DNA of 61,736 bases from Gemmatimonadota bacterium (GCA_036476995.1 JAZGCO010000084.1:1-61736), one strand, 5' to 3'. Numbered from the stretch's first letter, positions 3,063 to 61,736 are shown. Notes: generated from the sequence alone by a model not told the origin. Program-made: numbers and translations.

Positions 3063-3589
3063 CGATGCGACGTCCGGTCCGGATCGGCGTGATCGGCTCG
3101 GCTGAGGCCACCGAACTGGCGGCCCGCCTGGCGCGAACGATCGGAACCGCCCTCGCCCATGCAGAAGCGGTGCTCGTATGTGGTGGTCGCGGCGGCGTAA
3201 TGGCAGCGGCCGCGGCGGGCGCCGCCGAGGAGGGGGGGATCGTCATTGGGCTTCTGCCGGGCGAGGATGCGGCCGGGGCAAGCAGTGGAGTAACGATTCC
3301 CATTCCGACGGGCCTGGGTGACGCTCGCAACACCCTGGTTGTGCGTGCTTCAGAGGTGCTCATCGCGGTAACGGGTGGCTGGGGGACCCTCAACGAAGCG
3401 GCGCTGGCGATGAAACTCGGCCGGCCGCTGATCGGGGTCCACGACAGCCTGGGCGATGCATTCAACATCGAACGCTTCTCGGACCCGTTCGCGGCTGTTG
3501 CCAGGGCCATCGAGCTGGCCACCGAAGCCCGCCTGACCGGTGGCCCAGCAGTGGTCCGGCCACGCCGCCCGGAGCGGCAGCACCTGTGA
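3059..3589 (+). CDS. TIGR00725/LOG-like Rossmann-fold nucleotide-binding protein
   Basis: IGVIGS, CGGRGGVM, TGLGDARN and GGWGTLNE motifs. Confidence 0.85.
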   Translation: MTMRRPVRIGVIGSAEATELAARLARTIGTALAHAEAVLVCGGRGGVMAAAAAGAAEEGGIVIGLLPGEDAAGASSGVTIPIPTGLGDARNTLVVRASEVLIAVTGGWGTLNEAALAMKLGRPLIGVHDSLGDAFNIERFSDPFAAVARAIELATEARLTGGPAVVRPRRPERQHL

Positions 3590-3996
3590 TCGCCGTGGCT
3601 GTGTTCGGGGTGATCATGGCCATGCTTCTAGCCGCAGTCGTCGTCGCACCCATGGTCGAGGAGAGAAAGCGCTCTGAGCCGCAGCCCGGGGACGAGGAGG
3701 CGGTTCGTCTCGAGCGCGCCTTGGACACGCTGCGCCGACTTCAGTTCGATTACGAAACGGGTAAGCTCGATGAAGAGGACTACGCTGCGCTCCGGCGCGA
3801 ACACGCCGACGCCGCGATCGCGGCCAGAGACGAACTGGCGTCGAAGGACCCACAAAACGCCGCGGTAGCAGGAGAACCGGCCGCCGCGGGCCAGGTGAGA
3901 TGCGCCGGGTGCGGCTCAACGCTGCCTCCATCGGTTCAGTTCTGCACCAACTGCGGCATCCCGGCCCCGCAGCCGTTCGACTCGTCCGGTGAATAG
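3586..3996 (+). CDS. Membrane-anchored protein with a CcmI-like N-terminal segment and a C-terminal zinc ribbon
   Basis: N-terminal TM helix, L-x-x-L-x-FDYETGKLDEEDY segment, and CxxC...FCxxCG. Confidence 0.7.
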   Translation: MIAVAVFGVIMAMLLAAVVVAPMVEERKRSEPQPGDEEAVRLERALDTLRRLQFDYETGKLDEEDYAALRREHADAAIAARDELASKDPQNAAVAGEPAAAGQVRCAGCGSTLPPSVQFCTNCGIPAPQPFDSSGE

Positions 3997-28337: not shown

Positions 28338-30170
28338 GTGACTTCCGGCGAGCGGCCGTCTGAGGCTGGAGAGGGCTCGCGCACGCGCATCGCGTACCTC
28401 GACGGCGCCCGGCTGCGGCGAATCCTGCTTGCCGCTGTCGATTACGTTTCCGCACGTAAGGCCGAGCTGAATCGCATCAACGTCTTTCCGGTTCCTGACG
28501 GGGATACAGGAACCAACCTGACACTGACTCTCCAGGCTGTGGCTGACGCCGTCAGACCTCTCAAGTCCACGGATCTCACCGAGGTAGTCAAGGCGGCGGC
28601 AGAGGCCAGCCTACTCGGAGCCCGGGGCAACTCCGGCATGCTCTTTTCCAACTTCCTTCTTGGCTTCGCGAAGAGCATCGAAGGCAAGGACCGTATCGGG
28701 ACGCAAGAAGCAGCCGACGCGCTCACGGTGGCAGCGCGATCGATCCAGGATGTTCTGGAGAATCCCCAAGAAGGTACGATAGTCACCGTCGCGCGCGAAC
28801 TGGCCAACGGAGCTCGTCAGCACGCGGTCGGCCGGGCAGACCTCTACTGGTGGCTTCACGACGTGCAGGAAGCGGCACACGCTTCGCTACTGCGGACGAG
28901 GGAGATGCTTCCGGAGCTACGTGAAGCCGGTGTGGTTGATGCAGGCGCCGCCGGGCTTGTGCACTTCTTCGAGGGCATCCTGCACTACGTGAACGGCGAT
29001 GTAATCGAGCCTCCAGAGCCCTTGGTCGGGCCGCTACCGGGCTCGGCCGCGATCGGCAAAGCCAAGCAGGCGGGAGTGGGCGCCGGCGAGGGACGGTACT
29101 GCACTCAGATTGCGATTCGTGGACGGGGGCTGCCTGATAACGCTGCGATCCGACAGGCGCTCGTTGGTCTCGGAACCTCCACTATCGTGCTGCGGTCCGA
29201 CGACCTGGCCAAGATCCATATTCATGCCGACGAGCCGCCGCGCATACGATCCATTCTCGCGAAAATGGGGAAGGTCGTGTCCGAGCGTATCGAGGATACG
29301 AGTCTGGACGCGCCCTCGCGCCCGGTTGCGGTAGTCACAGATTCGTCGGCCGACCTGGCCCATGACTGGGTAGAGCGGAAGGGCGTCACGGTCGTTCCCA
29401 TGCGCGTTATGGTTGGTGGAGAGACGTACCGGGATGGGGTAGATCTCGAGGCGGAGAGACTGCTCGAACTCCTGGCCGGCTCGGAGGGCGAACACGCCAG
29501 CACCTCTCAGCCCGCTCCGGCCGAGTTTGCCGCACGGTATGAGCGAGCTTTGAGTGGGGGAGCGGACCGGATCCTCGGGCTCTTCGTGGGTTCGAATCTG
29601 TCCGGGACCTACAATTCGGCTGTCGCGGCCCTCCGGGAGTCCGAAGTGCCGTTCGAGGCTATTGATTCCCGGACGAGCTCGCTCGGCCTGGGTCTCCTTG
29701 TCGCGCGAGCCGTAGAGCTGGTCGACGCGGGTGCAGGCCTGGAGGAAGCGGCGGAGGATCTGAGGCGTGTCGTCACGCAGTCAAACATTTTGTTCACCGT
29801 AGATACGTTCGAATACCTGCTCAGATCTGGCCGGGTAGGGCGGGCCAGGGCTAAGCTCGGATCGTGGCTTGACATCAAGCCGATTCTGTCGATCGACAAA
29901 GACGGACACATCATCGGGCACGAACGTGTTAGGGGCCGAAAGGCGCTGCTTCCCCGGGTCATCGCTCTCCTCGACGAGGCTCTGGAGGGCGCCATGCGAT
30001 ACCGGTTGGGAGTCGTGCACTTCGATGCGGCGAAGATGGCTGCGAAGGTCGAGAAGCGCCTGCGGCGGCGCTACACCCCCGTAGAAATCATGGTATCTCC
30101 GGTTACCGCAGCCCTGGCTGTGCACCTGGGCCCCGGGGCCTGGGGTGTCATGTACCAGATCGAGGATTGA
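28338..30170 (+). CDS. DAK2-DegV fusion (fatty acid kinase FakA/FakB-like)
   Basis: LNRINVFPVPDGDTGTN, GARGNSG, VVDAG, YCT and KIHIH in the DAK2 part. VVTDSSADL, STSQP, LSGTY, SGRV, IKPIL and HLGPG in the DegV part. Confidence 0.9.
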   Translation: MTSGERPSEAGEGSRTRIAYLDGARLRRILLAAVDYVSARKAELNRINVFPVPDGDTGTNLTLTLQAVADAVRPLKSTDLTEVVKAAAEASLLGARGNSGMLFSNFLLGFAKSIEGKDRIGTQEAADALTVAARSIQDVLENPQEGTIVTVARELANGARQHAVGRADLYWWLHDVQEAAHASLLRTREMLPELREAGVVDAGAAGLVHFFEGILHYVNGDVIEPPEPLVGPLPGSAAIGKAKQAGVGAGEGRYCTQIAIRGRGLPDNAAIRQALVGLGTSTIVLRSDDLAKIHIHADEPPRIRSILAKMGKVVSERIEDTSLDAPSRPVAVVTDSSADLAHDWVERKGVTVVPMRVMVGGETYRDGVDLEAERLLELLAGSEGEHASTSQPAPAEFAARYERALSGGADRILGLFVGSNLSGTYNSAVAALRESEVPFEAIDSRTSSLGLGLLVARAVELVDAGAGLEEAAEDLRRVVTQSNILFTVDTFEYLLRSGRVGRARAKLGSWLDIKPILSIDKDGHIIGHERVRGRKALLPRVIALLDEALEGAMRYRLGVVHFDAAKMAAKVEKRLRRRYTPVEIMVSPVTAALAVHLGPGAWGVMYQIED

Positions 30171-51408: not shown

Positions 51409-52648
51409 GTCCCAGCGCCACGACCGGATCCTGCTTGGCGGCTTTGTGTGCAGGGTAGAGCCCCGATCCTACCCCGACCAACAAACCCAGGGCGAGAGAA
51501 AGCCCAATTGCCCACGAGGGCACCGAAGCAGGCAGCGCGGTCGTGGCGTCTACGAGCTTCCCGAGAAGAATGCCCAGGCCTATGCCGATGGCGGCGCCGA
51601 ACAAAGACAGCGTCGAAGACTCGGCGAGAAACTGCAGCATGACGTCCTTACGGCGAGCCCCGAGTGCCTTGCGGATCCCGATCTCACGGGTCCGGCTGGC
51701 GACGGACAGCAGCATGATGTTCATGATCACGATCCCTCCCACAACCAGCGCAATCAGCGTCAGGCCCGGAAGAGCGGCCAGCAACACCCGGTTGATCGTC
51801 TCCCAGAGTCCTAGAATTTCGCTGGAGGTTTGAATGTGGAAGTTGTTTTCTTCACCCGGCCTCAGTCCGCGCGCGGTTCGAAGCGCCGCCTCGGTCTCCA
51901 GAATCGCGGCATCCATCTCCTCCAATGACCGCATCTTGACCTGAATGTCCTCTACGCGCTCGCGGTCGCTCGAAAACGTCTGTCGATAGGTTGAGAAGGG
52001 AACCAGCATCGACGCATCCCGGATGTTGCCCAGGAATCCGCCCTGCGCTTCCCAGACGCCCACTACCTCGAACCGGTGCGCACCCACCCGAATACGCTTG
52101 CCCAGCGGCGTGACATCCGGAAACAAGCGGTCCGCGATCTGAGAGCCAATAATCGCCACCTTGAGGCCACGTCTCTGATCCAGTGTCGACAGCCCCCGGC
52201 CTTGATCGACCTCCCAGCCCTGCAGCACTTCGTATTCGTCCGAGCCTCCGATGATGCGGATGTTTCGCCTCCGCTTCTCGCGATACGTCGCACCTTCGCC
52301 TAAAAACGCGTCCGACGAATACGCGAAGCGCCACGCGTCCGGAGCCGCTGCCTTTACTACCTCGGCGTCTGCAATCGTCAGATCAGGATTCCGCGACTCT
52401 CTCCGCCGCCGAGCTTCCGATTCGCTACCCGTGGTGACGTTCGTACGGCGCACCACGGTGAAGGTGTTTACTCCGAAGATAGACCCCGCGAAGTCGTCCT
52501 GAACGTACCGGTTCATGCCCTCCACAACCGTGATTACGGCTATGAAGAACGTGATCCCTATTATCACGCCGATCAAAGTGAAGAACGACTTCAGCTTGTG
52601 GGCGCGGATTTGCTGGAGCGCCATCAAGATGCCTTCGGCGAATTTCAT
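51401..52648 (-). CDS. ABC transporter permease (MacB/YknZ type), second paralog
   Basis: KLKSFFTLIGVIIG and GGIVIMNIMLLSVASRTREIGIRKALGA motifs. Start MKFAEG at 52648. Confidence 0.92.
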   Translation of the reverse strand: MKFAEGILMALQQIRAHKLKSFFTLIGVIIGITFFIAVITVVEGMNRYVQDDFAGSIFGVNTFTVVRRTNVTTGSESEARRRRESRNPDLTIADAEVVKAAAPDAWRFAYSSDAFLGEGATYREKRRRNIRIIGGSDEYEVLQGWEVDQGRGLSTLDQRRGLKVAIIGSQIADRLFPDVTPLGKRIRVGAHRFEVVGVWEAQGGFLGNIRDASMLVPFSTYRQTFSSDRERVEDIQVKMRSLEEMDAAILETEAALRTARGLRPGEENNFHIQTSSEILGLWETINRVLLAALPGLTLIALVVGGIVIMNIMLLSVASRTREIGIRKALGARRKDVMLQFLAESSTLSLFGAAIGIGLGILLGKLVDATTALPASVPSWAIGLSLALGLLVGVGSGLYPAHKAAKQDPVVALGHE

Positions 52649-52655
52649 CGAACGT

Positions 52656-53381
52656 TCACGTTGCCGCGCCGAAGATGTGGGGCACCAAGTGTGCGTCCCT
52701 TGACTCGATCTCACCATCTCTGAGCGTAATGGTCCGCTGTGCTCGGGTGGCGATGTCATATTCGTGCGTCACCATGATGATCGTCTGACCCTGTGCATGC
52801 AGATCATCGAACACCTGCATGATCTCCGCTGAAGTGCTCGAATCCAGATTGCCGGTGGGTTCGTCTGCCAGGAGAATCGACGGCTGGTTGACGAGCGCCC
52901 GCGCGATCGCCACCCGTTGCCGCTGCCCTCCTGAGAGTTCATTGGGCTTGTGGTCCATGCGGTCGGCCAGATCGACGATTCGGAGCGACTCTTTCGCCCG
53001 TTCGATTCGCTCTCTGGCCGATACTCCGGCGTAGATCAGCGGCAGTTCAACATTGTGGAGAGCGGTGGCTCTGGGGAGCAGGTTGAAGGTCTGAAACACG
53101 AACCCGATCTCACGGTTTCGAATCCGCGCCAGTTCGTCGTCGTCCAGATCCTGCACTGCCTGGCCGTTGAGCATGTATTCGCCCGCCGTCGGTGTGTCCA
53201 GGCACCCGATCAGGTTCATTAGGGTGGACTTTCCCGAGCCCGACGGACCCATGACGGCGATATATTCGTTGGCCTGGATGTCCAGATCCACCCCCCGCAG
53301 AGCGTACACCGTCTCAGCCCCCATCACGTATTCTTTTCGCAGTCCCCTGGTCTGTATCAGGGTGCCTGTTTCGTCAGTCAT
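52656..53381 (-). CDS. ABC transporter ATP-binding protein (MacB/YknY type)
   Basis: [17 protein letters not shown] and ADEPTGNLD motifs. Confidence 0.95.
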
Positions 53382-53437
53382 AGTTGCCCTTGGTTCCTGT
53401 AAGTTCCGCCCGGTGGCGGCTCTCTCAGTACGACAGA

Positions 53438-54742
53438 TCAGGAGTCGGTCGCGTCAGCCTTCCTATCCTCGTCCTTTACTTTCACTTCGTCTCCGTCTTT
53501 CAGGCTACGGATCGCCTGATAGGATCCCGATATTACCGTGGCGCCTTCCTCCAGGCCGTCGGTTACTTCGAAGTAGTTATCGCCGGCGATTCCGATCTCG
53601 ACGGGCTGGAAGCGTGCGATGCCCTCCGTCACCACGAAGACACCTTCGACTTCTTCAGTCTCCTCATCCGTTGAGCTGTCGCTCGAACCCGCCCCTTCCG
53701 AATCGCCGGCTGCCGCCTGGTTCTCATTCGGCATGAACTCGAATTCGTCCGATTCGAGCAGAGTCAGCGCAATGATAGGAATGGCCAGCACGTCGGGACG
53801 AACCGCCGTAATGACGTCTGCGGTGGCCGACAGATCGGTTCGAAGTTCGGAATCAGGGTCCTCCAGCATGATGCGAACCTCGAAGTCGATCGCCTGGTCC
53901 GAACTGGACTGAAGGTTCGATCTTGGCCGAATCGAGCTGTTACCGATCTTGGTGACTACACCCGTGAATTCCCGGCCCGGAAAAGCGTCGATGGCGACCG
54001 CCGTGGAATCTCCCAGCTTGATCTCGGGAATATCCGTCTCGTCTACCTCGATGACCGCTTCCATGACAGACAGATCCGATACGGTCAGCAGGAGGCTCCC
54101 CGGATTATTCATCGTGCCGACGATGGCCGTCTCTCCTCGCTCGACGTTGAGACGCGTAACGCGGCCGCTTATCGGAGCCCTGATGACCGTCTTGGACAGC
54201 TGGTCTCTCGACTCGCTGACGCTCGCGCGGGCGATCCCGACACCGTGGCGGGCCGACTCCGAAAGTGCTTTCTGGACTTCCGCCTGGGTGCGTGCCGTCT
54301 CATACTCGATGTCTGTTACGAGATCCCCGACTGACTCTTTCAGCTGACGGATCCGGTCCCAGTCGCGCTGTGCCTGGTTCGCGTTCGCCTTGGCCTGTAC
54401 CTGACGCGCCTGCGCGTCCGCCAGACCCGCAAGCGATCGCTCCAGCGCTGCCTCGAATCTGGCCGGGTCAATGACCATGAGAAGCTCACCTTCGGCGACG
54501 TCCTGGCCCTCCTCGACCGTCAATTCGACGATCCGGCCCGAGACATCAGCGCTGATGTCCACCGAGGTTTCGGGCTCGATATGACCGGTGGCGGTCACGC
54601 GCGAGACCAGTGTTCGGCGTCCCACTTCCTCCGTCTTCACCTCCACCGCGTCCGATCTGCCGCTGCTCAGCGCAAGCACCGCGAACAGCGCGAGCACTGC
54701 CACGACACCCACGCCAATAAAAGCCTTCTTTTTGTTGGACAT
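53438..54742 (-). CDS. Membrane-fusion (MacA/YknX-like) periplasmic adaptor
   Basis: N-terminal TM, lipoyl-like [12 protein letters not shown], helical hairpin, APISG and VDETDI. Confidence 0.92.
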
Positions 54743-54815
54743 GCCTGTATTGTCGTTCCTTTGCCAGGCGCTCTAAAATAGCGCCAGTCGAATGGCTACT
54801 GCAGTCTGAGTCTCT

Positions 54816-54842
54816 TACGTGGACGGAATGGTTCAGGTTTCG
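54816..54842 (-). promoter_or_regulatory. ECF sigma-type promoter upstream of the MFP-ABC genes
   Basis: Minus strand CGAAAC-N17-CGTA, about 75 bp upstream of the MFP start. Resembles the SigW-class TGAAAC-N16-CGTA. Confidence 0.55.
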
Positions 54843-54963
54843 GCGCCGTAGTCAGTCCCGCCAAGCGATAAACACCCGGACACTGTGCTCGGTTGTGGCG
54901 CACCGGGGCCCGCCCGGCCCCCGGAGCTGAGCTGGCTCCGTCGCAGCTCTTCGCGAGGGAGGC

Positions 54964-55692
54964 CTAGCCGGCCAGGCCTCCGATCGCGGCCCCGATAAAC
55001 TTGATTACCACGTAGGTCCCAAGCAGGATCCCGACCGCAGTCCCCGTGCTGACCTTGGGGTACAACCGGCTCATCGCGATTCCTAGCACGACTGCGGTCC
55101 AGATCCCGAACAAATTCAGCCCGTTCAAGAACTTGAATGCGAAGCTGCCGGAGTCCATTCCCGGGGCCAGCAGGCCGAGCGACATGGCTGTATCGAGGCT
55201 GCCGCGCGCCAAGATCAGTGGCAGTGTCACCAGTCCCCCGACGATTCCTATCAGGTTGGCGTGCGTGGTGAAGGCGAAAAGCTGCTTGAAGCTGGCTTCC
55301 CCGCCCATGAGGAGGTTGAAAACGAGTAGCAGGAAAACCGCGATGATCAGTAACATGATGGGCTGGAAGACAGCCGGGCCCAACCAGCGCAACACTCCAG
55401 CCAGACCAGCCTGTGACTCCATGGCTTCCATCTGCTCCGGTGTCGCGTCCGCCGGAACCTGCGCCATCATCATCTCCTCGATGAGCTCCAGGGGGATCAG
55501 CGCGACGATCGCGATCCCGACTCCGACAGCGAGAAGGAGCGCTCCGAGCCAGCGCGGCTTTCCACCGAGCGCATCGAACAGCTTCGCGGGTGAGGTCAGC
55601 ACTTGTACGAACCGGACCATCAGGTTCGGCAGTGTCGGCTCGGCCGTAACAGGCCCGGATTCGATCGGCGCAGCACCCATTCCGTCATCCAT
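54964..55692 (-). CDS. Yip1-domain membrane protein (YknW-like)
   Basis: VLTSPAKLF...PRW, five TM helices, GGEASFKQ and NLFGIW. Lies upstream of the MFP-ABC genes. Confidence 0.8.
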   Translation of the reverse strand: MDDGMGAAPIESGPVTAEPTLPNLMVRFVQVLTSPAKLFDALGGKPRWLGALLLAVGVGIAIVALIPLELIEEMMMAQVPADATPEQMEAMESQAGLAGVLRWLGPAVFQPIMLLIIAVFLLLVFNLLMGGEASFKQLFAFTTHANLIGIVGGLVTLPLILARGSLDTAMSLGLLAPGMDSGSFAFKFLNGLNLFGIWTAVVLGIAMSRLYPKVSTGTAVGILLGTYVVIKFIGAAIGGLAG

Positions 55693-55715
55693 GTTCAGCC
55701 TCTCTCGTCATGATA

Positions 55716-56435
55716 TCAGCCTCCTTGGAGCCGCCGGGCTTCCCACCCGGTGGACCGATTCAAAACTCTGATCAGGCGACTTCCGTCCCGACTGGTCCAT
55801 ACCGAGCGTTCCTCTCCGCCTACGGTCAGGTCGATCCGAACCGCCCGCTGCGACGAACCGTCTACCTCGGCCGTGACTTGTGAAACTCCGGTAATCGCTG
55901 CTCTCATCACCCGGCCCTCCCGGGGAACCAGCACCCGCAGGACATCGCCCGCCTGATGATTGGCCGCTACGACCCGCCGGGCGAGGAAGTAATAGTGGTG
56001 CGCGACGCCATCCTCAAGTATCAAAATGGCCGGAGGTGCGACGACCTCCTTGACCCGCTCTCCACGGGCGCCCCGGGTCGTGAGCTGGAGCCGGTTCGCT
56101 CCGAGGGGGACCACTTCGATTCGCGGACCGTTTGCGCTTCGACTTCTCAGATCATAGCGAATCAGGCTGAAATCGGCGGCCACCCTGAAACCGACCCGAA
56201 AGGGCTCTCCACGGCCCGGTACAGCGCTGATCCGGCCGACCGCGATGATCCCGTCTCCTTCGGCCCGGATCGCGAAGACCTCTGTGCCGACGACTCCATC
56301 AGCCGTACGGAGTTCGAATCGGCCCGTGTCTATTACGTCCGGCTCTTGGGCGCCGGCCAGGGCCGGCGTGATCGCCATGATTGCGGCGGCGCAAATGACG
56401 CGCCAGGGCGACACTCGTTGGTCGGAGAGCTTCAT
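55716..56435 (-). CDS. Hypothetical exported beta-rich protein
   Basis: Signal-peptide-like segment ending ALAGA-Q and a beta-strand-rich mature part. Start uncertain. Confidence 0.6.
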   Translation of the reverse strand: MKLSDQRVSPWRVICAAAIMAITPALAGAQEPDVIDTGRFELRTADGVVGTEVFAIRAEGDGIIAVGRISAVPGRGEPFRVGFRVAADFSLIRYDLRSRSANGPRIEVVPLGANRLQLTTRGARGERVKEVVAPPAILILEDGVAHHYYFLARRVVAANHQAGDVLRVLVPREGRVMRAAITGVSQVTAEVDGSSQRAVRIDLTVGGEERSVWTSRDGSRLIRVLNRSTGWEARRLQGG

Positions 56436-56523
56436 GGATCCGCTAGTTCCTCGAGACGTGGCCAGGCCTGGAAAATCGAACCCCAAACTTCCTACACCAG
56501 GCCCGCTGCGTCCAGTATCCGAG

Positions 56524-57315
56524 CTACAGTCGGCGGATCGAGTCCAGGTCTATCTTGAAGACCAGAAGATCTCCGACACGTTCCACCTCGCCCTCGACCT
56601 CAATAGGCGCGGCGACATACTTCAGAGCGTCGGGACCCAGCGCCTTGCCGTCGGGTCGGGCCAGCACATAGCTCACAAGGCTTCCGTCGGGCCGAAAAGA
56701 CGCGAACATCGGGGGTACGCCGCTAGCCAGGCAGTACGTCGCACAGCCCCTGTGTGTCTTCCCCTGTCCGGGAATCATGCCGCCCAGGAAGCACTTGTGG
56801 TCTACGATCTTGCCTTTGAGCCGGAAATGCCCCAGCGGTTCGGGCGTGAAAGCAACCCATGTTGAGGTGTCCACCTCGTCCGGGTCGGCCAGGCGCAGTT
56901 GATTGCCGCCGCTCAGCCCTACCTGAAGAAGGCGAGTTCCGTCTCTGGTGAAGAAGGCGCCTCCGACCTGCACCGGCTTGCCGTTCAACTCTCGGGCCTT
57001 GTCCGCCGGGACACCGTGTTTGCCGGGCCGGTGCATGAGCACCGTACCGCCATCCGGATCTTCGGCTGTAGGCGCGATGTGCAGCATGGGGTATGGATCC
57101 GCCTGGAAGATTCCGCCCAGGACCGGGGCCCTCACCAGCCGCGTGGTCGGAGGCGCCTTCTGCGCCAGATAAAGGCCGAAGGCCAGTCCGGACGACGCCA
57201 GTAACAGGACGAACGCTACGACGAGCGAAAACACGCGTAGACGAACCGGCATCTTCCGGTACCCAATGTAGAACTCGTCCCGATTCGAGATCTTCGCTCG
57301 GTCTTCCATATCCAT
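56524..57315 (-). CDS. Membrane-anchored hypothetical protein with a DHKC...HRGCATYC motif
   Basis: EFYIGY, one TM helix, then IVDHKCFLGGMIPGQGKTHRGCATYCLASGVPP and a C-terminal OB-like VEGEV. Starts 3 bp after the upstream stop. Confidence 0.8.
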   Translation of the reverse strand: MDMEDRAKISNRDEFYIGYRKMPVRLRVFSLVVAFVLLLASSGLAFGLYLAQKAPPTTRLVRAPVLGGIFQADPYPMLHIAPTAEDPDGGTVLMHRPGKHGVPADKARELNGKPVQVGGAFFTRDGTRLLQVGLSGGNQLRLADPDEVDTSTWVAFTPEPLGHFRLKGKIVDHKCFLGGMIPGQGKTHRGCATYCLASGVPPMFASFRPDGSLVSYVLARPDGKALGPDALKYVAAPIEVEGEVERVGDLLVFKIDLDSIRRL

Positions 57316-57318
57316 GCC

Positions 57319-58374
57319 CTAGCCCATGATGACCGGGTCAACATGCGTGCCCGGCTCGAGCGCATCGGTGTGCACGAACACACGGCCGCTCTCCAATTTG
57401 AGCCTGTAAGTGGGAACCTTCTCCTCGAACGGTGGCGGAGACGTTCCGTTGTGAGGTTCGTACTGATATCCGTGCCACGGACACGTAACGCATCCATCCA
57501 CGATCCTTCCCTCACCCAGCGGGCCGCCCTGATGAGCGCATACGTTGGAAACGGCTGAGAGTTTGCCATCGTAGCGGAAGACGGCCACTCGCTCGTCACC
57601 GCCGACCGGGACGATTCGCGCGCGGTCGGTCCTAAAATCCTCCAGTGCGCCAGCGTCCAGCCACCCGCCGCCTGCGGCCGGAGTCGGGGCCTTCGCGTCC
57701 CGGCGCCACTCCCGCCAGCCGGTGATCGAGTGCAGGCTGACAACGACCACCAGGTTGAATCCTACGAGAATCGAATAGATCGGCGCTTCCTCGCTCTGCA
57801 GGGTCCCCAGGGCTACGTGCATGACGATTAGGCCGTACGCGACGTACACCAGCATGTGCAGGCCCTTCCACACCCGGGGAGTGAGGAAGTGAAGCCAGAA
57901 ATCGTGGCTGGTGACAGCCATTAGCAGCAGGATCGCCAGCCCCAGGACTCCTAGCACCTCGAACGGAAATCCGGTGAGTGAACTGAAGCCACCGGCCGAA
58001 TTGGAAAGGAAAACACCTTGGAGCTGGGTGAACTCCCCGAAATTGTAGTACAACCCCAGGACCTGCTTGGCATGGTAGAGGGCAACCAGAAACGTGAGCA
58101 CTCCGAAATGGCGCCGGTTGTACAGCAGCGGCAAGAACCTGCGGTCCAGCCGGGCCAACGGTCCGATGCAGAGGATGAGCGTGAGCATCAGGAAGGCGCA
58201 GCTCCCGTAGGCTCGCATCCCGATGATCCGGCTCTGGATCATGGGCCCGCCAGACCAATAGCTGGAGGCGAATTTTGTGAAGACGGCGATGTAGAGCGCC
58301 ACCCCCGCCACCAGGATGAGGTCGTATACGAGTTTGCTTCGGGTCCAGGTGACCGCCTTGTACCCGGCGCTCAT
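57319..58374 (-). CDS. Ferric-reductase-like (MsrQ/YedZ-type) heme TM domain fused to a C-terminal Rieske [2Fe-2S] domain
   Basis: Heme-ligand His pattern NRRHFGV..YH and WKGLH..VY....MH, plus Rieske CAHQGGPL...CPWH. Confidence 0.88.
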   Translation of the reverse strand: MSAGYKAVTWTRSKLVYDLILVAGVALYIAVFTKFASSYWSGGPMIQSRIIGMRAYGSCAFLMLTLILCIGPLARLDRRFLPLLYNRRHFGVLTFLVALYHAKQVLGLYYNFGEFTQLQGVFLSNSAGGFSSLTGFPFEVLGVLGLAILLLMAVTSHDFWLHFLTPRVWKGLHMLVYVAYGLIVMHVALGTLQSEEAPIYSILVGFNLVVVVSLHSITGWREWRRDAKAPTPAAGGGWLDAGALEDFRTDRARIVPVGGDERVAVFRYDGKLSAVSNVCAHQGGPLGEGRIVDGCVTCPWHGYQYEPHNGTSPPPFEEKVPTYRLKLESGRVFVHTDALEPGTHVDPVIMG

Positions 58375-58562
58375 GGGGCGCCTCCGGGCTGGGCCGGGGC
58401 CGGGGCCGCGGCTGTCTCCGCTGCAGCCGAAGCATTTCCCGGTTGCTGCGAGTCCACGGGCACGGCCGGTCTAAGCACCAGCGCCAACACGAAACCGAGA
58501 GGGAGGAGCACAGCCCAGGCGATCCAGATCCAGGCGTGCGCTCGTCGGTGAGCGGCCTGCAT
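58371..58562 (-). CDS. Small single-TM membrane protein
   Basis: MQAAHRRAHAWIW followed by a TM helix. GAGG RBS. Stop overlaps the next start by 4 bp. Confidence 0.7.
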   Translation of the reverse strand: MQAAHRRAHAWIWIAWAVLLPLGFVLALVLRPAVPVDSQQPGNASAAAETAAAPAPAQPGGAP

Positions 58563-58569
58563 ACGTGCC

Positions 58570-58785
58570 TCAGCCTTGCCCGCGAAAGCTCTTCAACATT
58601 CGCCAAGCGGTGAGGGGCCACAAAACAGTGGCACCCGGGATGAGGATCAGACGAAACAAGGGTCGAAGCCCGCGGGCTCCGTCATCCAACCTGCCGACAC
58701 CGACCGTTACGAAAATCAGCGCCGTGACCGCTCCAATAATGCCGTACAGCCTCGCGATGTTCAGAAGTGCGTCTACGGTTTCCAT
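58570..58785 (-). CDS. Small two-TM membrane protein
   Basis: GGAGGAG RBS before the ATG at 58785, and YGIIG...GVGRLD...FRLILIPG..LWP. Confidence 0.72.
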   Translation of the reverse strand: METVDALLNIARLYGIIGAVTALIFVTVGVGRLDDGARGLRPLFRLILIPGATVLWPLTAWRMLKSFRGQG

Positions 58786-58839
58786 ACGCTCCTCCCGCTG
58801 CCGGCGATCATACACGAAGACCTGGTTTGAGGCTAGTTT

Positions 58840-59778
58840 TCAGGTCCTGGCGTCTCGCGCACCGGTCGCGCCTTGCCGGCTCTCGCGCACGTACACGAGC
58901 GCTACACTTCCCACCACGATGCCCAGTCCTAACCAGCCCGTGGCGCTGAGCTCCTGACCAAACAGGACCAGCGCCAGCACGGTTCCCACCACCGGTTCGA
59001 TTGTAGCCGAGACCGCGGCCGGCGCCGCATCAATGCGCCTGACCGCCTCAAAGAAGAGGAAATTGGCAGCGATTATCGCTCCGAGTGAGAGCAGCGCCAC
59101 GTAGATCCATCCACCAGGCGTGCTAGGGGGTGCGAGGGAGCTACCGCTCAGTGGCAGAAGGATCGCGAGGAGTAGCGCAGCGCCTGAGATCTCGGCCGTT
59201 AGAACTGCGACCGCCCCGTAACGCGGCACCGCATACCTCGCCAGAAGCGTCGTTCCTGCGTATGCCAGCGCGGCCAATAGTCCTCCAACGATTCCCGACA
59301 CCTGGGTCTGCACACTTCCGGACACCGTCTGGGCCCCGCTTCCCCCGGCCACCGTCAGACCGGCTCCCACACCTACAGCGACCGCGAGCGCGAGTCGCAG
59401 CGGAGTGATCCGCTCTCGGAGAATCGGAAGAGCTAGTAGCGTGACCAGAAAGGGCGCCGTGTAGAGGAGTGCCGCCGCCCCCGCTACCCCGGCTCCGGCG
59501 ATCGCGAATTGATAGGCGACCTCGAACAGCGCTACCATCGCGCCCCCGCCCAGTCCCACGATTAGGAACCCGTGGAGGGGCATGCGGGGCCAGTGTCTCT
59601 TCACGGCGACATAGGCCAGAAGACCTGCGGCGGCGACCAGGACTCGCCAGAAACCGACGGAGGTGAGTTCTGCCCCTTCGGCATACAGGGCGGTGCTGAG
59701 CGGACCGGTAGTTCCCCACAGTGTGCCAGCCGCCAGCGCGAACAAGTAGCCAGCTATGTGAGGCCGATTGCGTAGCAT
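58840..59778 (-). CDS. EamA/DMT family transporter
   Basis: About 10 TM helices, with LWGT, LLYTAP, LRERI, EPVV and FGQEL motifs. Confidence 0.9.
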   Translation of the reverse strand: MLRNRPHIAGYLFALAAGTLWGTTGPLSTALYAEGAELTSVGFWRVLVAAAGLLAYVAVKRHWPRMPLHGFLIVGLGGGAMVALFEVAYQFAIAGAGVAGAAALLYTAPFLVTLLALPILRERITPLRLALAVAVGVGAGLTVAGGSGAQTVSGSVQTQVSGIVGGLLAALAYAGTTLLARYAVPRYGAVAVLTAEISGAALLLAILLPLSGSSLAPPSTPGGWIYVALLSLGAIIAANFLFFEAVRRIDAAPAAVSATIEPVVGTVLALVLFGQELSATGWLGLGIVVGSVALVYVRESRQGATGARDART

Positions 59779-59895
59779 GGCCGCAATCTAGTCGGCAGCA
59801 AGCCCTTCCACAGTCGGTTGTTGCTCCCGGAGCGCGTCGGCCCGATTTTCCGACCGGGGCGTAGTGGTACAGTCAACCTGGACCGCGAGGACGAA

Positions 59896-60354
59896 ATGGA
59901 AAGCGCCGAAATCTGGCTCACGCCGCTCATTCTGCTTCCAGGAGTCGCACTGCTCGTACTCTCTACGTCCATCCGGTATTCACGCCTTCACGATGAGTTT
60001 CACTCCGCGCAGCATCACGCCGCATCTCATTCGGTCTCGGTCATGAGCCGCCTGATGCACAGGGCGACTCTGTTCCGCAACGCTCTCGTGTGCCTGTACG
60101 CCAGCGTCGTCCTGTTTACCGCAGCCAGTCTCGTGGGCGCGCTGATCGGCCTGTGGGGAGACCTGCCGGTCCGAGCCGTGGTTCTAACACTTGCGAGCAC
60201 GGGAACAATGGGCGTGGTTGCGGCGGCTGTACTGCTGGTACGGGAGGCGTTCGAATCGCTGGAGGTGATCCGGGATCATGCGACCGAGATCGCGGGCCAG
60301 GATTCGGGCCGTGCCGCGGCGGCACCCAGCGGACAGCGAGGAGACCTGGAATGA
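59896..60354 (+). CDS. DUF2721-like three-TM membrane protein
   Basis: [21 protein letters not shown]...R..L.RNAL..LY pattern. Confidence 0.7.
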
Positions 60355-61019
60355 CGACAGATCCGGGCTTTGTCGAGCTGTCGTTTCGGGAATACGAAGT
60401 GGCCGAAATGCGTTCGCGTGCGGCTGAAGCTTACGCCGAGCTCGACCGGCGGCGTACCGTACGCCAGTTCGCCGACCGTCCGGTTCCCATCGAAATCATC
60501 CAGGACTGCATCCGAGCTGCCGGGACGGCTCCAAGCGGTGCCCACCAGCAGCCCTGGCACTTCGCCGTCGTCGGAGACTCCGCGGTCAAGACGCAGATCC
60601 GAGCGGCGGCCGAAGAAGAGGAGCGCTCTTTGTACGGAGGGCGCGCGCCACAGGAGTGGCTCGACATCCTGGCTCCTCTCGGCACCGACGAGAACAAGCC
60701 GTTCCTGGAGACGGCCCCGTGGCTCATAGCCATCTTTGCCCGCAGCTACGGGATCGACCCCTCGGGACAGCGCGTGAAGCACTACTACGTCCAAGAATCC
60801 GTCGGCATAGCTACCGGACTGCTGATCTCGGCGGTGCACCGGGCCGGTCTGGCGTCACTGACCCACACTCCGAGCCCTATGGGATTCCTGAACCAGATCC
60901 TGGGGCGCCCGACCAACGAGCGCCCGTACCTGCTCCTGGTCGTCGGGTATCCGGCTCCAGGCGCCGTGGTTCCGGATCTGAAAAGGAAGGAACTAAGCGA
61001 GATCGCTTCCTTCATGTAA
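60351..61019 (+). CDS. Iodotyrosine deiodinase-like flavoprotein (nitroreductase superfamily)
   Basis: [50 protein letters not shown] and LTHTPSPM motifs. ATG overlaps the upstream stop. Confidence 0.9.
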
Positions 61020-61177
61020 GGAACCTGGACCGGTGCTCCTAGCGGTCAGCGACGAGCCGCAGAGCCTGACCCTGGACCAGTTCGCCGACATGATGCAGGA
61101 TCGTCAGCCGTGGCCCGCGTCGGCCGCAGCGTGTACTCGGGGCGGAACGGTGACGCGCCAGATACGTTGTGACACAT

Positions 61178-61507
61178 ATGACAACAACGATCAGCATCAC
61201 GCATACGCCGACCGGGACGCTGCTGGCGCGCGGCCCCAAGGGCTGGGGCATCACGCCCTTCGAGGGCAACCTGTATATTGGCCGCAAGCACCTCGTCACG
61301 GATGGATTCAAGCAGAACTGGATTCCGGGCCTCTGCGTCTACAAGTTCCTGTACGTGTGGATGGATCTGCATCTTCCCGGCGGCGGGAAGGTCAGAGGGC
61401 TTGGCTGGATGTACTGGCTTCCCAACCCCCTGTTTCCGTTCATCTGGTACCGCGTGGGTGTACCGCGCCATCACCCCGAACTCAGCGTGACTGAAGAGCC
61501 AGCATAA
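61178..61507 (+). CDS. DUF427-like small protein
   Basis: EGNLY, CVYK...Y and GWMY..P......I..RV resemble the DUF427 EGN-YF/CPWKG/AWxY-P pattern. Confidence 0.6.
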   Translation: MTTTISITHTPTGTLLARGPKGWGITPFEGNLYIGRKHLVTDGFKQNWIPGLCVYKFLYVWMDLHLPGGGKVRGLGWMYWLPNPLFPFIWYRVGVPRHHPELSVTEEPA

Positions 61508-61552
61508 GCGCGCCGTTGAGCATGGGTTGAGGGCCGGCTCCACCCTCCACGC

Positions 61553-61736
61553 ATGCTCGAGGTCGTACAAACTGCGTCGCTGCTGGGGCTGGAGGTCACT
61601 CCGGTCCGGACCGAAGTGTCGATTCGGCGTGGCACCCCGATGATTCAGATCCTCGGCATGCCCGCTTCCGATGCTCGCCAGGTAACGGAGCGAATCCGGG
61701 CCGTGGCGTCTTTCCTGGATCTTCACGTTCCTGGAC
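61553..61736 (+). CDS. YifB/ComM Mg-chelatase-like AAA ATPase, 5' fragment running off the window
   Basis: MLEVVQTASLLGLEVTPVRTEVSIRRGTPMIQILGMP...ERIRA matches the family N-terminus. Not in the ORF track because it has no stop in the window. Confidence 0.75.
   Translation, partial: MLEVVQTASLLGLEVTPVRTEVSIRRGTPMIQILGMPASDARQVTERIRAVASFLDLHVPG

Follow-up and report, generated by a model that had tools for sequence, protein, structure and literature searches.

A four-gene bacterial membrane module links a di-haem Rieske protein to a new Cys/His partner family and may serve a periplasmic copper site

The 61,736-nucleotide stretch of DNA analysed here (hereafter the window) comes from a Gemmatimonadota bacterium (GCA_036476995.1 JAZGCO010000084.1:1-61736) and carries an operon of four genes, which we name A (71 amino acids, aa), B (63 aa), C (351 aa) and D (263 aa). 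The module they encode is probably a ferric-reductase-domain electron conduit with a new input domain, the Rieske domain of C, and a new partner family, represented by D. Electrons probably flow outward through this conduit, from the Rieske domain over two haems to D, and we tentatively propose that the conduit reduces or maintains a periplasmic copper site. A first-pass annotation of the sequence had described a tight four-gene operon with gaps of 7, -4 and 3 base pairs (bp), and a listing of open reading frames (ORFs) over 52000-61736 places all four genes exactly so on the minus strand, the negative gap between B and C being an ATGA overlap. A Shine-Dalgarno sequence, GGGAGGAG, precedes the ATG of A, and GAGG precedes that of B.

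Protein C consists of a six-helix di-haem domain of the ferric-reductase type (about residues 15-218) followed by a C-terminal Rieske [2Fe-2S] domain (residues 238-335). Both assignments exceed the Pfam cut-offs, Ferric_reduct (PF01794) matching residues 57-183 with E 4.7e-11 and 43.2 bits (cut-off 28) and Rieske (PF00355) matching residues 238-311 with E 1.6e-14 and 54 bits (cut-off 20.3). The four haem-type histidines and the complete Rieske CxH...CxxH reported at first pass are indeed there: H89/H101 in the third helix and H173/H186 in the fifth, predicted to bind two b haems, and the cluster ligands C279-x-H281 and C298-x2-H301. All eight residues, together with H157 and H215, are invariant in 62 C sequences. 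No MsrP, flavin/NAD domain or oxygenase alpha subunit was found among the four gene products with Pfam and NCBIfam, as had been noted before. Nor was a FAD/NAD(P)H-binding dehydrogenase domain detected in C with Pfam or in the precomputed Pfam lists of the 120 listed longer homologs described below.

The topology of C was assessed from the mean number of Lys+Arg over the C alignment, which is higher at the N-terminus (2.3), in loop 155-170 (1.8) and after helix 6 (3.1) than in loops 34-49 (0.7) and 190-198 (0.3). The His-bearing third helix (about 88-108) escaped a simple hydropathy scan, and the six helices were counted as in other family members. On this count the N-terminus, the 2-3 and 4-5 loops, the Rieske linker and the Rieske domain would lie inside, with H89/H173 near the inner and H101/H186 near the outer face of the membrane. 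The charge distribution therefore fits the cytoplasmic Rieske domain and extracytoplasmic D that the first-pass annotation had assumed. Dual Sec-Tat export of the Rieske domain, an idea taken from PMC5449189 as far as its text could be consulted, was rejected, there being no hydrophobic helix after WRRD past helix 6. When the C profile was run against PDB sequences, the Rieske part alone was matched, and its nearest relatives were dioxygenase ferredoxins, e.g. 2e4p (E 1.1e-11). Such ferredoxins, which are components of ring-hydroxylating dioxygenases, carry electrons in soluble form and receive them from flavoprotein reductases.

Protein D lies outside every named family. As for A and B, no Pfam or NCBIfam match was obtained at E <= 0.01, and in the Atlas D appears only in 'hypothetical' clusters and in one cluster automatically named 'DUF5666'. 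Membership in DUF5666 (Pfam PF18914) was rejected, since D has no Pfam match at that threshold and the automatic label is the sole link. An exhaustive profile search places 3007 representative clusters in the D family at E <= 0.001, of which 1343 reach E <= 1e-30. A conserved N-terminal peptide with nearly invariant F15, G18 and Y19 precedes the membrane helix (residues 24-51), and because four Lys/Arg stand ahead of this single helix, the N-terminus of D is predicted to lie inside and its bulk outside.

The AlphaFold2 model of D (predicted local distance difference test score 90.3, predicted template modelling score 0.82) suggests that the helix at 24-51 is followed by two beta-barrels, at 59-132 and 159-255, both OB-like. 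In the second barrel a helical insert (173-197) would bear the invariant Cys/Met/His/Cys/Cys, with D172 alongside; model confidence is lowest in the loop at about 181-190. The Cys/His motif recognised at first pass is present, with a spacing that has to be corrected from x14 to x12: it reads DHKC-x12-H-x2-C-x3-C (C175, H188, C191, C195). Conservation extends to the ligands, since G68, P74, K99, D172, C175, G178, M180, P182, H188, C191, A192, C195 and G199 are invariant in 76 D sequences, as the haem and Rieske residues are in C. Foldseek found no PDB match at E <= 0.001 for the whole model or for domain 2 folded alone, and the D-domain profile retrieved nothing from PDB sequences (best E 0.6). 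VIA-align returned generic OB folds only, with potempin A as the best match both for the whole protein (Z 7.3) and for domain 2 (Z 7.1), and with lower scores for YgiW (Z 5.2), NlpE (Z 5.1) and SilF (Z 4.5).

The two small proteins would be accessory helices of the complex. In A, residues 13-31 clearly form a hydrophobic helix and those at about 43-62 a second, less distinct one; its conserved residues are Y14, G18, F25, D34, P50, G51, W56 and P57. B begins with MQAAHRRAHAW, which contains the HRRAH pointed out earlier, and by charge its N-terminus is predicted to lie inside and its tail outside. Conservation in B is confined to the N-terminal ~28 residues, where H9 is invariant in 67/67 sequences and R6 in 65/67; the tail differs in length by lineage, so that B reaches 130-170 aa in some. 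We also observed that H157 and H215 of C and H9 of B are three invariant histidines predicted at the inner membrane face, surplus to the needs of two haems. They might bind an extra metal or cofactor, placed between the inner haem and the Rieske domain.

To see how far the gene set is conserved, relatives of C were collected in a contig scan with one genome per species (at least 594 among 600 pattern matches), and the 80 best loci among them were searched with profiles iterated on six-frame ORFs. By record title these loci belong to Planctomycetota (about 33), Bacteroidota (17), Acidobacteriota (11), Pseudomonadota (7) and Cyanobacteria (6), the remaining labels being Gemmatimonadota, KSB1, Eisenbacteria and a few unclear ones. 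The profiles recovered A from 77 of the 80 loci, B from 66 and D from 79, without exception in the order A-B-C-D on the strand of C. The three loci without A (L013, L014, L018) begin less than 310 bases ahead of C, the one without D (L024) ends 37 bases past C, and B, with its short conserved part, was missed in 14. Such an arrangement is far beyond chance, and the four genes proposed at first pass as one unit do co-occur across phyla, under at least eight phylum labels. In a separate sample, from the phylum of the genome that carries locus L066, C adjoins all eight full-length D genes. Cultured carriers of the module include Flagellimonas flava DSM 22638 and Pseudovibrio ascidiaceicola DSM 16392.

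The bond between C and D goes as far as fusion. Both are encoded in one open frame in six of the 80 loci (L010, L036, L039, L041, L042, L049), and a search for longer relatives of C yielded 208 proteins of 616-727 aa, in which the D profile sets in at about residue 357 in 119 of the 120 listed. The fusion is topologically sensible because D's own helix, placed after the Rieske domain, would carry the rest of D across the membrane, and it is this fusion together with synteny that suggests contact between C and D. The lone long homolog without D, P0281 (727 aa), may have arisen from gene calling that read through into a further Rieske gene. Judged by eye, the ferric-reductase::Rieske part of P0281 is followed by another Rieske domain, a soluble one, and then by a stretch resembling NADPH-dependent FMN reductase, which hints at a flavin reductase neighbour.

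The second barrel of D also occurs on its own. Small secreted proteins made of this barrel alone, with the motif GxV[IV]DxxC...H-x2-CA-x2-C, form a stand-alone family (loci L092-L097, L101-L130 without L118, L139-L146, L147-L159 and L168-L172) that is 'hypothetical' in the Atlas. Aligned with D, the stand-alone form keeps the invariant Asp, Cys, His, Cys-Ala-x2-Cys and Gly and lacks the Met loop. Within the window's phylum, 12 of 121 genomes, other than those that carry full-length D, encode a secreted protein of ~105 residues (mature) that matches D domain 2 only. In all five loci inspected its gene is translationally coupled to that of a ~455-aa lipoprotein ending in a TlpA/ResA-like WCxxC domain, and a sixth copy, rich in His, is encoded after a pump of the CusA/CzcA type (406 bits on a 420-residue fragment). 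Stand-alone genes stand directly after CusA/CzcA-type genes in L097, L102 and L115.

In Acidobacteriota the stand-alone barrel was found in 71 of 201 sampled genomes, and 29 loci were analysed within 1.5 kb (G149, one of the 71 genomes, was not used). A c-type cytochrome adjoins the stand-alone gene in 14 of these loci, the end of a gene best matching CopA in four (237-251 bits over ~170 residues), the end of a CusA/CzcA gene in two and a small YHS/TRASH protein in four; taken together, 15 of the 29 have at least one such neighbour. The pairing with haem proteins in 14/29 loci argues that the domain itself exchanges electrons with haem. Among Pseudomonadota the barrel is present in eight of 401 genomes, with SCO1/SenC two genes downstream in six of the eight loci, a rhodanese after Sco in two of them, and, in one locus, a divergent neighbouring gene for a short ferric-reductase-domain protein. 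Right after the stand-alone gene, all eight loci encode a second Cys-rich secreted protein (~165 aa), which precedes SCO1/SenC where the latter is present; it has the motif VVDxxC..GxCxxxCG and a conserved WFRRD stretch at its end, and no Pfam match at E <= 1e-6. The phylum of the genome with L066 has the stand-alone barrel in 13 of 301 genomes.

These observations can be joined in one mechanism, in which A, B, C and D would form a single inner-membrane complex that moves single electrons outward. A cytoplasmic donor would reduce the Rieske [2Fe-2S] cluster of C, which is of the low-potential type; the electron would pass first to the inner b haem (H89/H173), from there to the outer one (H101/H186), and finally to a periplasmic redox site on the second barrel of D, made up of D172, C175, H188, C191 and C195 and, in this branch, M180. 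That site would most likely hold a soft metal, for which copper is the best candidate. Three features are consistent with a redox-active metal site that exchanges electrons with haem: the Cys-x3-Cys and His motif, the recurring company of Sco, TlpA-like proteins, CopA, CusA and YHS/TRASH proteins, and the recurring pairing with haem proteins, which are cytochromes c for the free form and the di-haem domain for D. The module could then act as a periplasm-facing metalloreductase and hand-off device, which either reduces Cu(II) to Cu(I) or keeps up a copper-binding Cys site. Where the first-pass annotation had left the choice between metal reduction and thiol repair, the neighbourhoods of the D paralogs point to copper handling and its thiol upkeep.

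Several points weigh against outward flow to a copper site, the first being that the link to copper comes from paralogs and not from the module's own loci. Within +-4 kb of the 80 module loci, blastp with our own reference fragments found CopA in none, CusA in one, and cytochrome c and TlpA-type lipoproteins in none, and no Sco was noted in the same intervals. The commonest recognisable neighbour there is instead a secreted YHS (seleno)protein, in 13/80 loci within 4 kb (blastp), which fits a thiol or selenol function equally well. The paralogs are themselves not uniform: 14 of the 29 acidobacterial stand-alone loci have no metal or haem neighbour within 1.5 kb, and in the phylum of the genome with L066 a TlpA-like neighbour was seen in two of 18 stand-alone loci, the others being unrecognised in what was a weak BLAST search with distant fragments of our own. 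The resemblance to Cu(I)-loaded SilF (8bwv_B; Z 4.5, root-mean-square deviation 3.5 over 71 residues, rank 48) lies amid unrelated OB folds, at noise level, and the Cys3-His site of D could be a structural zinc site. Nothing able to reduce the Rieske domain is encoded in the operon or seen in the 120 listed longer homologs, so that the conduit cannot be called self-contained, as it had been at first pass. The module is also patchy, full-length D being present in nine of 121 genomes of the window's phylum (its own genome included) and in 0/5 of its family.

The main rival explanation is a supply line for thiols or selenols, which we consider unlikely; we give still less weight to a structural zinc site, to inward flow and to an MsrQ-type function. 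On this explanation the three Cys of D would be a redox relay and not a metal site. In an alternative to DsbD/CcdA, the module would supply reducing power to thioredoxin-fold and YHS (seleno)proteins of the periplasm, for use in peroxide or protein-thiol repair. A Pfam survey of the 72 same-strand ORFs just after D gave YHS seven times, AhpC-TSA four times (three of them fused to YHS), DinB_2 four times, EamA four times and DoxX_2 twice, with GST, H-NOX and globin once each and the others unrelated. Eight of nine YHS neighbours tested are NF041384 'YHS domain-containing (seleno)protein' (115-141 bits, cut-off 70), and by eye they have a signal peptide and a YGG[WY]CA motif. The position of this secreted protein right after D speaks for a thiol or selenol supply, as do the three loci in which YHS is fused to a CxxC-bearing thioredoxin-like domain, the locus L044 that has such a CxxC domain without YHS, the DinB_2, DoxX_2 and GST genes, and the pairing of stand-alone D-domain paralogs with TlpA/ResA-like proteins. 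Against it, haems give one electron and disulfide reduction takes two, with no bridging flavin or cluster evident in D. The invariant His, Asp and Met around the Cys are more typical of a metal site, and a copper site with Cys that have to be kept reduced would account for TlpA-like neighbours just as well, to judge from the portion of PMC6669012 consulted. Furthermore, the window's genome (2.12 Mb in 153 contigs, 90% complete) already has a CcdA/DsbD-type protein and yields no NF041384 match. The YHS (seleno)protein was rejected as an obligate partner on the latter ground and is an add-on, not a core partner. The same genome has two COX2 genes, and the organism therefore respires oxygen.

It is improbable that C is a direct reductase, whose outer haem passes electrons straight to an acceptor in solution, be it a ferric chelate, O2 (giving superoxide) or some other oxidant, with D in a structural or substrate-capturing role and its Cys3-His binding zinc. 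Short bacterial ferric-reductase-domain proteins and NOX/Fre act without such a partner, according to the available part of PMC3591440. OB barrels like those of D are a common and generic ligand-binding scaffold, and the loop from M180 to H188 is the lowest-confidence part of the D models. The near-obligate pairing and frequent fusion of C and D stand against a merely structural D, as does the haem-protein pairing of the stand-alone domains described above, and Cys-rich zinc sites are generally unusual in the oxidising periplasm.

Electron flow in the opposite direction seems very improbable. D would then oxidise a periplasmic reductant such as Cu(I), Fe(II), sulfide or thiols, and the electrons would travel over the haems and the Rieske domain to a cytoplasmic acceptor. 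Sequences do not fix direction, the operon encodes no cytoplasmic donor, and some paralogs sit in copper-efflux operons, where oxidising Cu(I) would detoxify. Yet all characterised members of the ferric-reductase-domain superfamily covered in the consulted parts of PMC3591440 and PMC7558416 move electrons outward, and the Rieske domain, which resembles low-potential ferredoxin components, would accept electrons from Cu(I) or Fe(II) only poorly. The idea that C serves as haem subunit to MsrP, or to a different periplasmic molybdoenzyme whose gene lies elsewhere, is close to refuted: C does weakly match the MsrQ model (NCBIfam NF003831, E 5.5e-08) and source annotations name its homologs 'YedZ/MsrQ', but it scores 32.6 bits against a cut-off of 130, blastp found an MsrP relative in 0/80 module loci, and the genome has its own MsrP (464 bits, cut-off 207) directly followed by MsrQ (193.6 bits, cut-off 130) on contig C41 (L085:2272-3285, 3242-3904). 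The identification of C as MsrQ was rejected on the same three grounds. The MsrP on C41, which lies far from the window, carries a Tat-type SRRRF signal, and the MsrQ beside it was not retrieved by a whole-protein search with C.

Outward flow from the Rieske domain over two haems to D, with copper as the tentative target, is therefore the reading we favour. In MsrPQ (YedYZ), known from E. coli and other bacteria, a ferric-reductase-domain protein with the same Pfam domain as C likewise feeds a dedicated periplasmic partner encoded alongside. C departs from MsrQ in retaining the full set of four haem His and in its fused Rieske domain, and where the partner in MsrPQ is a Tat-exported molybdoenzyme, D is a Cys/His protein with a predicted OB fold and its own helix anchor. 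The eukaryotic Fre, STEAP and NOX proteins share with C a di-haem (or haem and flavin) transmembrane wire with a fused cytoplasmic input domain, which is a Rieske [2Fe-2S] domain in C and an FAD/NADPH domain in their long forms. The output would also differ, being a separate or fused protein domain for C as against a free metal ion for Fre/STEAP. Fre and Steap are eukaryotic cupric reductases for which both Cu(II) and Fe(III) are substrates at the outer face, as stated in the sections of PMC7558416 that were consulted.

The fusion of ferric-reductase and Rieske domains has been listed before, as architecture model M4, an 'electron transfer agent', by Zhang 2013 (PMC3591440), whose figure legend ties the model to FMN as well. 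The domain pairing is that of C, and the passages of that article concerned with M4 mention neither A, B or D as partners nor an operon or a function. A literature search found no study of the operon, this partly consulted architecture listing being the nearest, and no characterised complex was matched, which bears out the first-pass statement that no characterised system has the same composition. Among bacteria, CcoG is called the first and only specific cupric reductase in a 2020 review (PMC7558416, consulted in part); it is a membrane protein with two [4Fe-4S] clusters that acts on the cytoplasmic side and is proposed to supply Cu(I) for cuproenzyme assembly. In contrast to the module, CcoG as described there has no ferric-reductase domain, haem or D-like partner.

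Two families of periplasmic copper proteins resemble D in part. Sco1/SenC proteins are periplasmic and membrane-tethered, as predicted for D, with Cys-x3-Cys and a His (H188-x2-C191-x3-C195 in D), a likeness of motif only. D differs from them in its predicted OB-like fold, which in Sco is a thioredoxin fold, in lacking a match to Pfam SCO1-SenC (PF02630), in its third invariant Cys and its Asp and Met, and in the proposed reductant, a haem wire for D as opposed to thioredoxin for Sco. ScoI binds copper via CX3C and a distant His, and TlpA must reduce those Cys first, as reported in the part of PMC6669012 available to us. CusF/SilF and some stand-alone D-type proteins have in common that a small periplasmic protein with an OB fold, predicted in the D-type proteins, is encoded beside a CusA-type pump. 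No sequence similarity was detected between D and CusF/SilF. The copper ligands of CusF are Met/His/Trp, whereas the candidate ligands in D are Cys/His/Asp.

Beyond A-D the flanks are variable among the 80 loci, and the genes that adjoin the operon in the window are outside the conserved core (Table 1). The upstream gene encodes an EamA-type transporter that is possibly co-transcribed with A-D; a scan for promoters and terminators around the operon, including the gap between the EamA gene and A, gave no signal above shuffled controls. EamA genes after D are confined to four cyanobacterial loci (L051, L053, L061, L074) among the 72 downstream ORFs. The 256-aa protein encoded downstream has no relative in the 80 loci (blastp) and seems, from inspection by eye, to be secreted. 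It is followed by a Yip1/YknW-type membrane protein and then a MacAB-like efflux pump with two FtsX-type permease genes.

Table 1 Coordinates of the module, its neighbours and the second Cys-rich protein of stand-alone barrel loci
Feature	Coordinates	Strand	Remarks
Gene A	58570..58785	-	71 aa from ATG at 58785, or 81 aa from GTG at 58815
Gene B	58371..58562	-	63 aa; one-helix protein; stop overlaps C start by 4 bp
Gene C	57319..58374	-	351 aa; ferric-reductase-domain::Rieske fusion
Gene D	56524..57315	-	263 aa; membrane anchor and two predicted OB-like barrels
EamA-type transporter gene	58840..59778	-	Pfam EamA E 3.5e-29; 54 bp upstream of A
256-aa gene, no family	55716..56486	-	37 bp after D; no Pfam/NCBIfam match
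Second Cys-rich protein	L139:3789-4439, L143:4861-5406, L145:4927-5499, L146:3802-4365		counterparts in L140-L142, L144

A recurrent downstream set was seen in 10-14 loci from three phyla and comprises a DinB-like protein, a TANGO2/NRDE protein and a protein that unites hydrolase, VTT/DedA and ATP-grasp-like parts. In L066:5825-9023 the genes are those of the YHS (seleno)protein, a LysE-type exporter, a 161-aa DinB-like protein, a TANGO2/NRDE-type protein and an ATP-grasp-like protein, the last joined in some loci to VTT/DedA and alpha/beta-hydrolase parts, and the set also recurs in L012, L021, L030, L031, L047, L069, L071, L072 and L080. The remainder of the window consists of housekeeping genes. 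Within it, a DUF2721 membrane protein gene (59818-60354, +) stands directly before that of a nitroreductase-family protein (60354-61019, +), whose BluB-like match of 51.9 bits is under the cut-off; a DUF2721 protein is also encoded downstream of D in locus L032. Further away, 28338-30170 (+) is one frame of 610 aa that joins Dak2/FakA-like and DegV (FakB-like) parts, i.e. a fused fatty-acid kinase.

What is new here is the scale of the C-D fusion, the separate MsrPQ in the same genome, and the stand-alone domain family with its copper and haem contexts. The most far-reaching form of the proposal is doubtful: that the module is the first bacterial outward-facing cupric reductase of the haem (ferric-reductase-domain) type, and that the second barrel of D founds a family of haem-coupled periplasmic copper proteins (OB fold, Asp/Cys3/His) whose free-standing members are partners of cytochromes c, CopA, CusA, TlpA and Sco when copper is exported and cuproenzymes are assembled. 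If the favoured reading holds, bacteria would have a dedicated route for single electrons from the cytoplasm to a periplasmic metal-handling protein, built on the same haem wire as the cupric and ferric reductases of eukaryotic cell surfaces. It would give a function to two large unnamed families, that of D with its 3007 representative clusters and the stand-alone Cys/His barrel with its wide occurrence in acidobacterial genomes, and would supply a component so far lacking in copper export and in the assembly of oxidases. Should copper prove to be wrong, the module would still be a widespread and directly testable part of envelope redox biology, in which a di-haem conduit fed by a Rieske domain has an obligate partner of a new kind.

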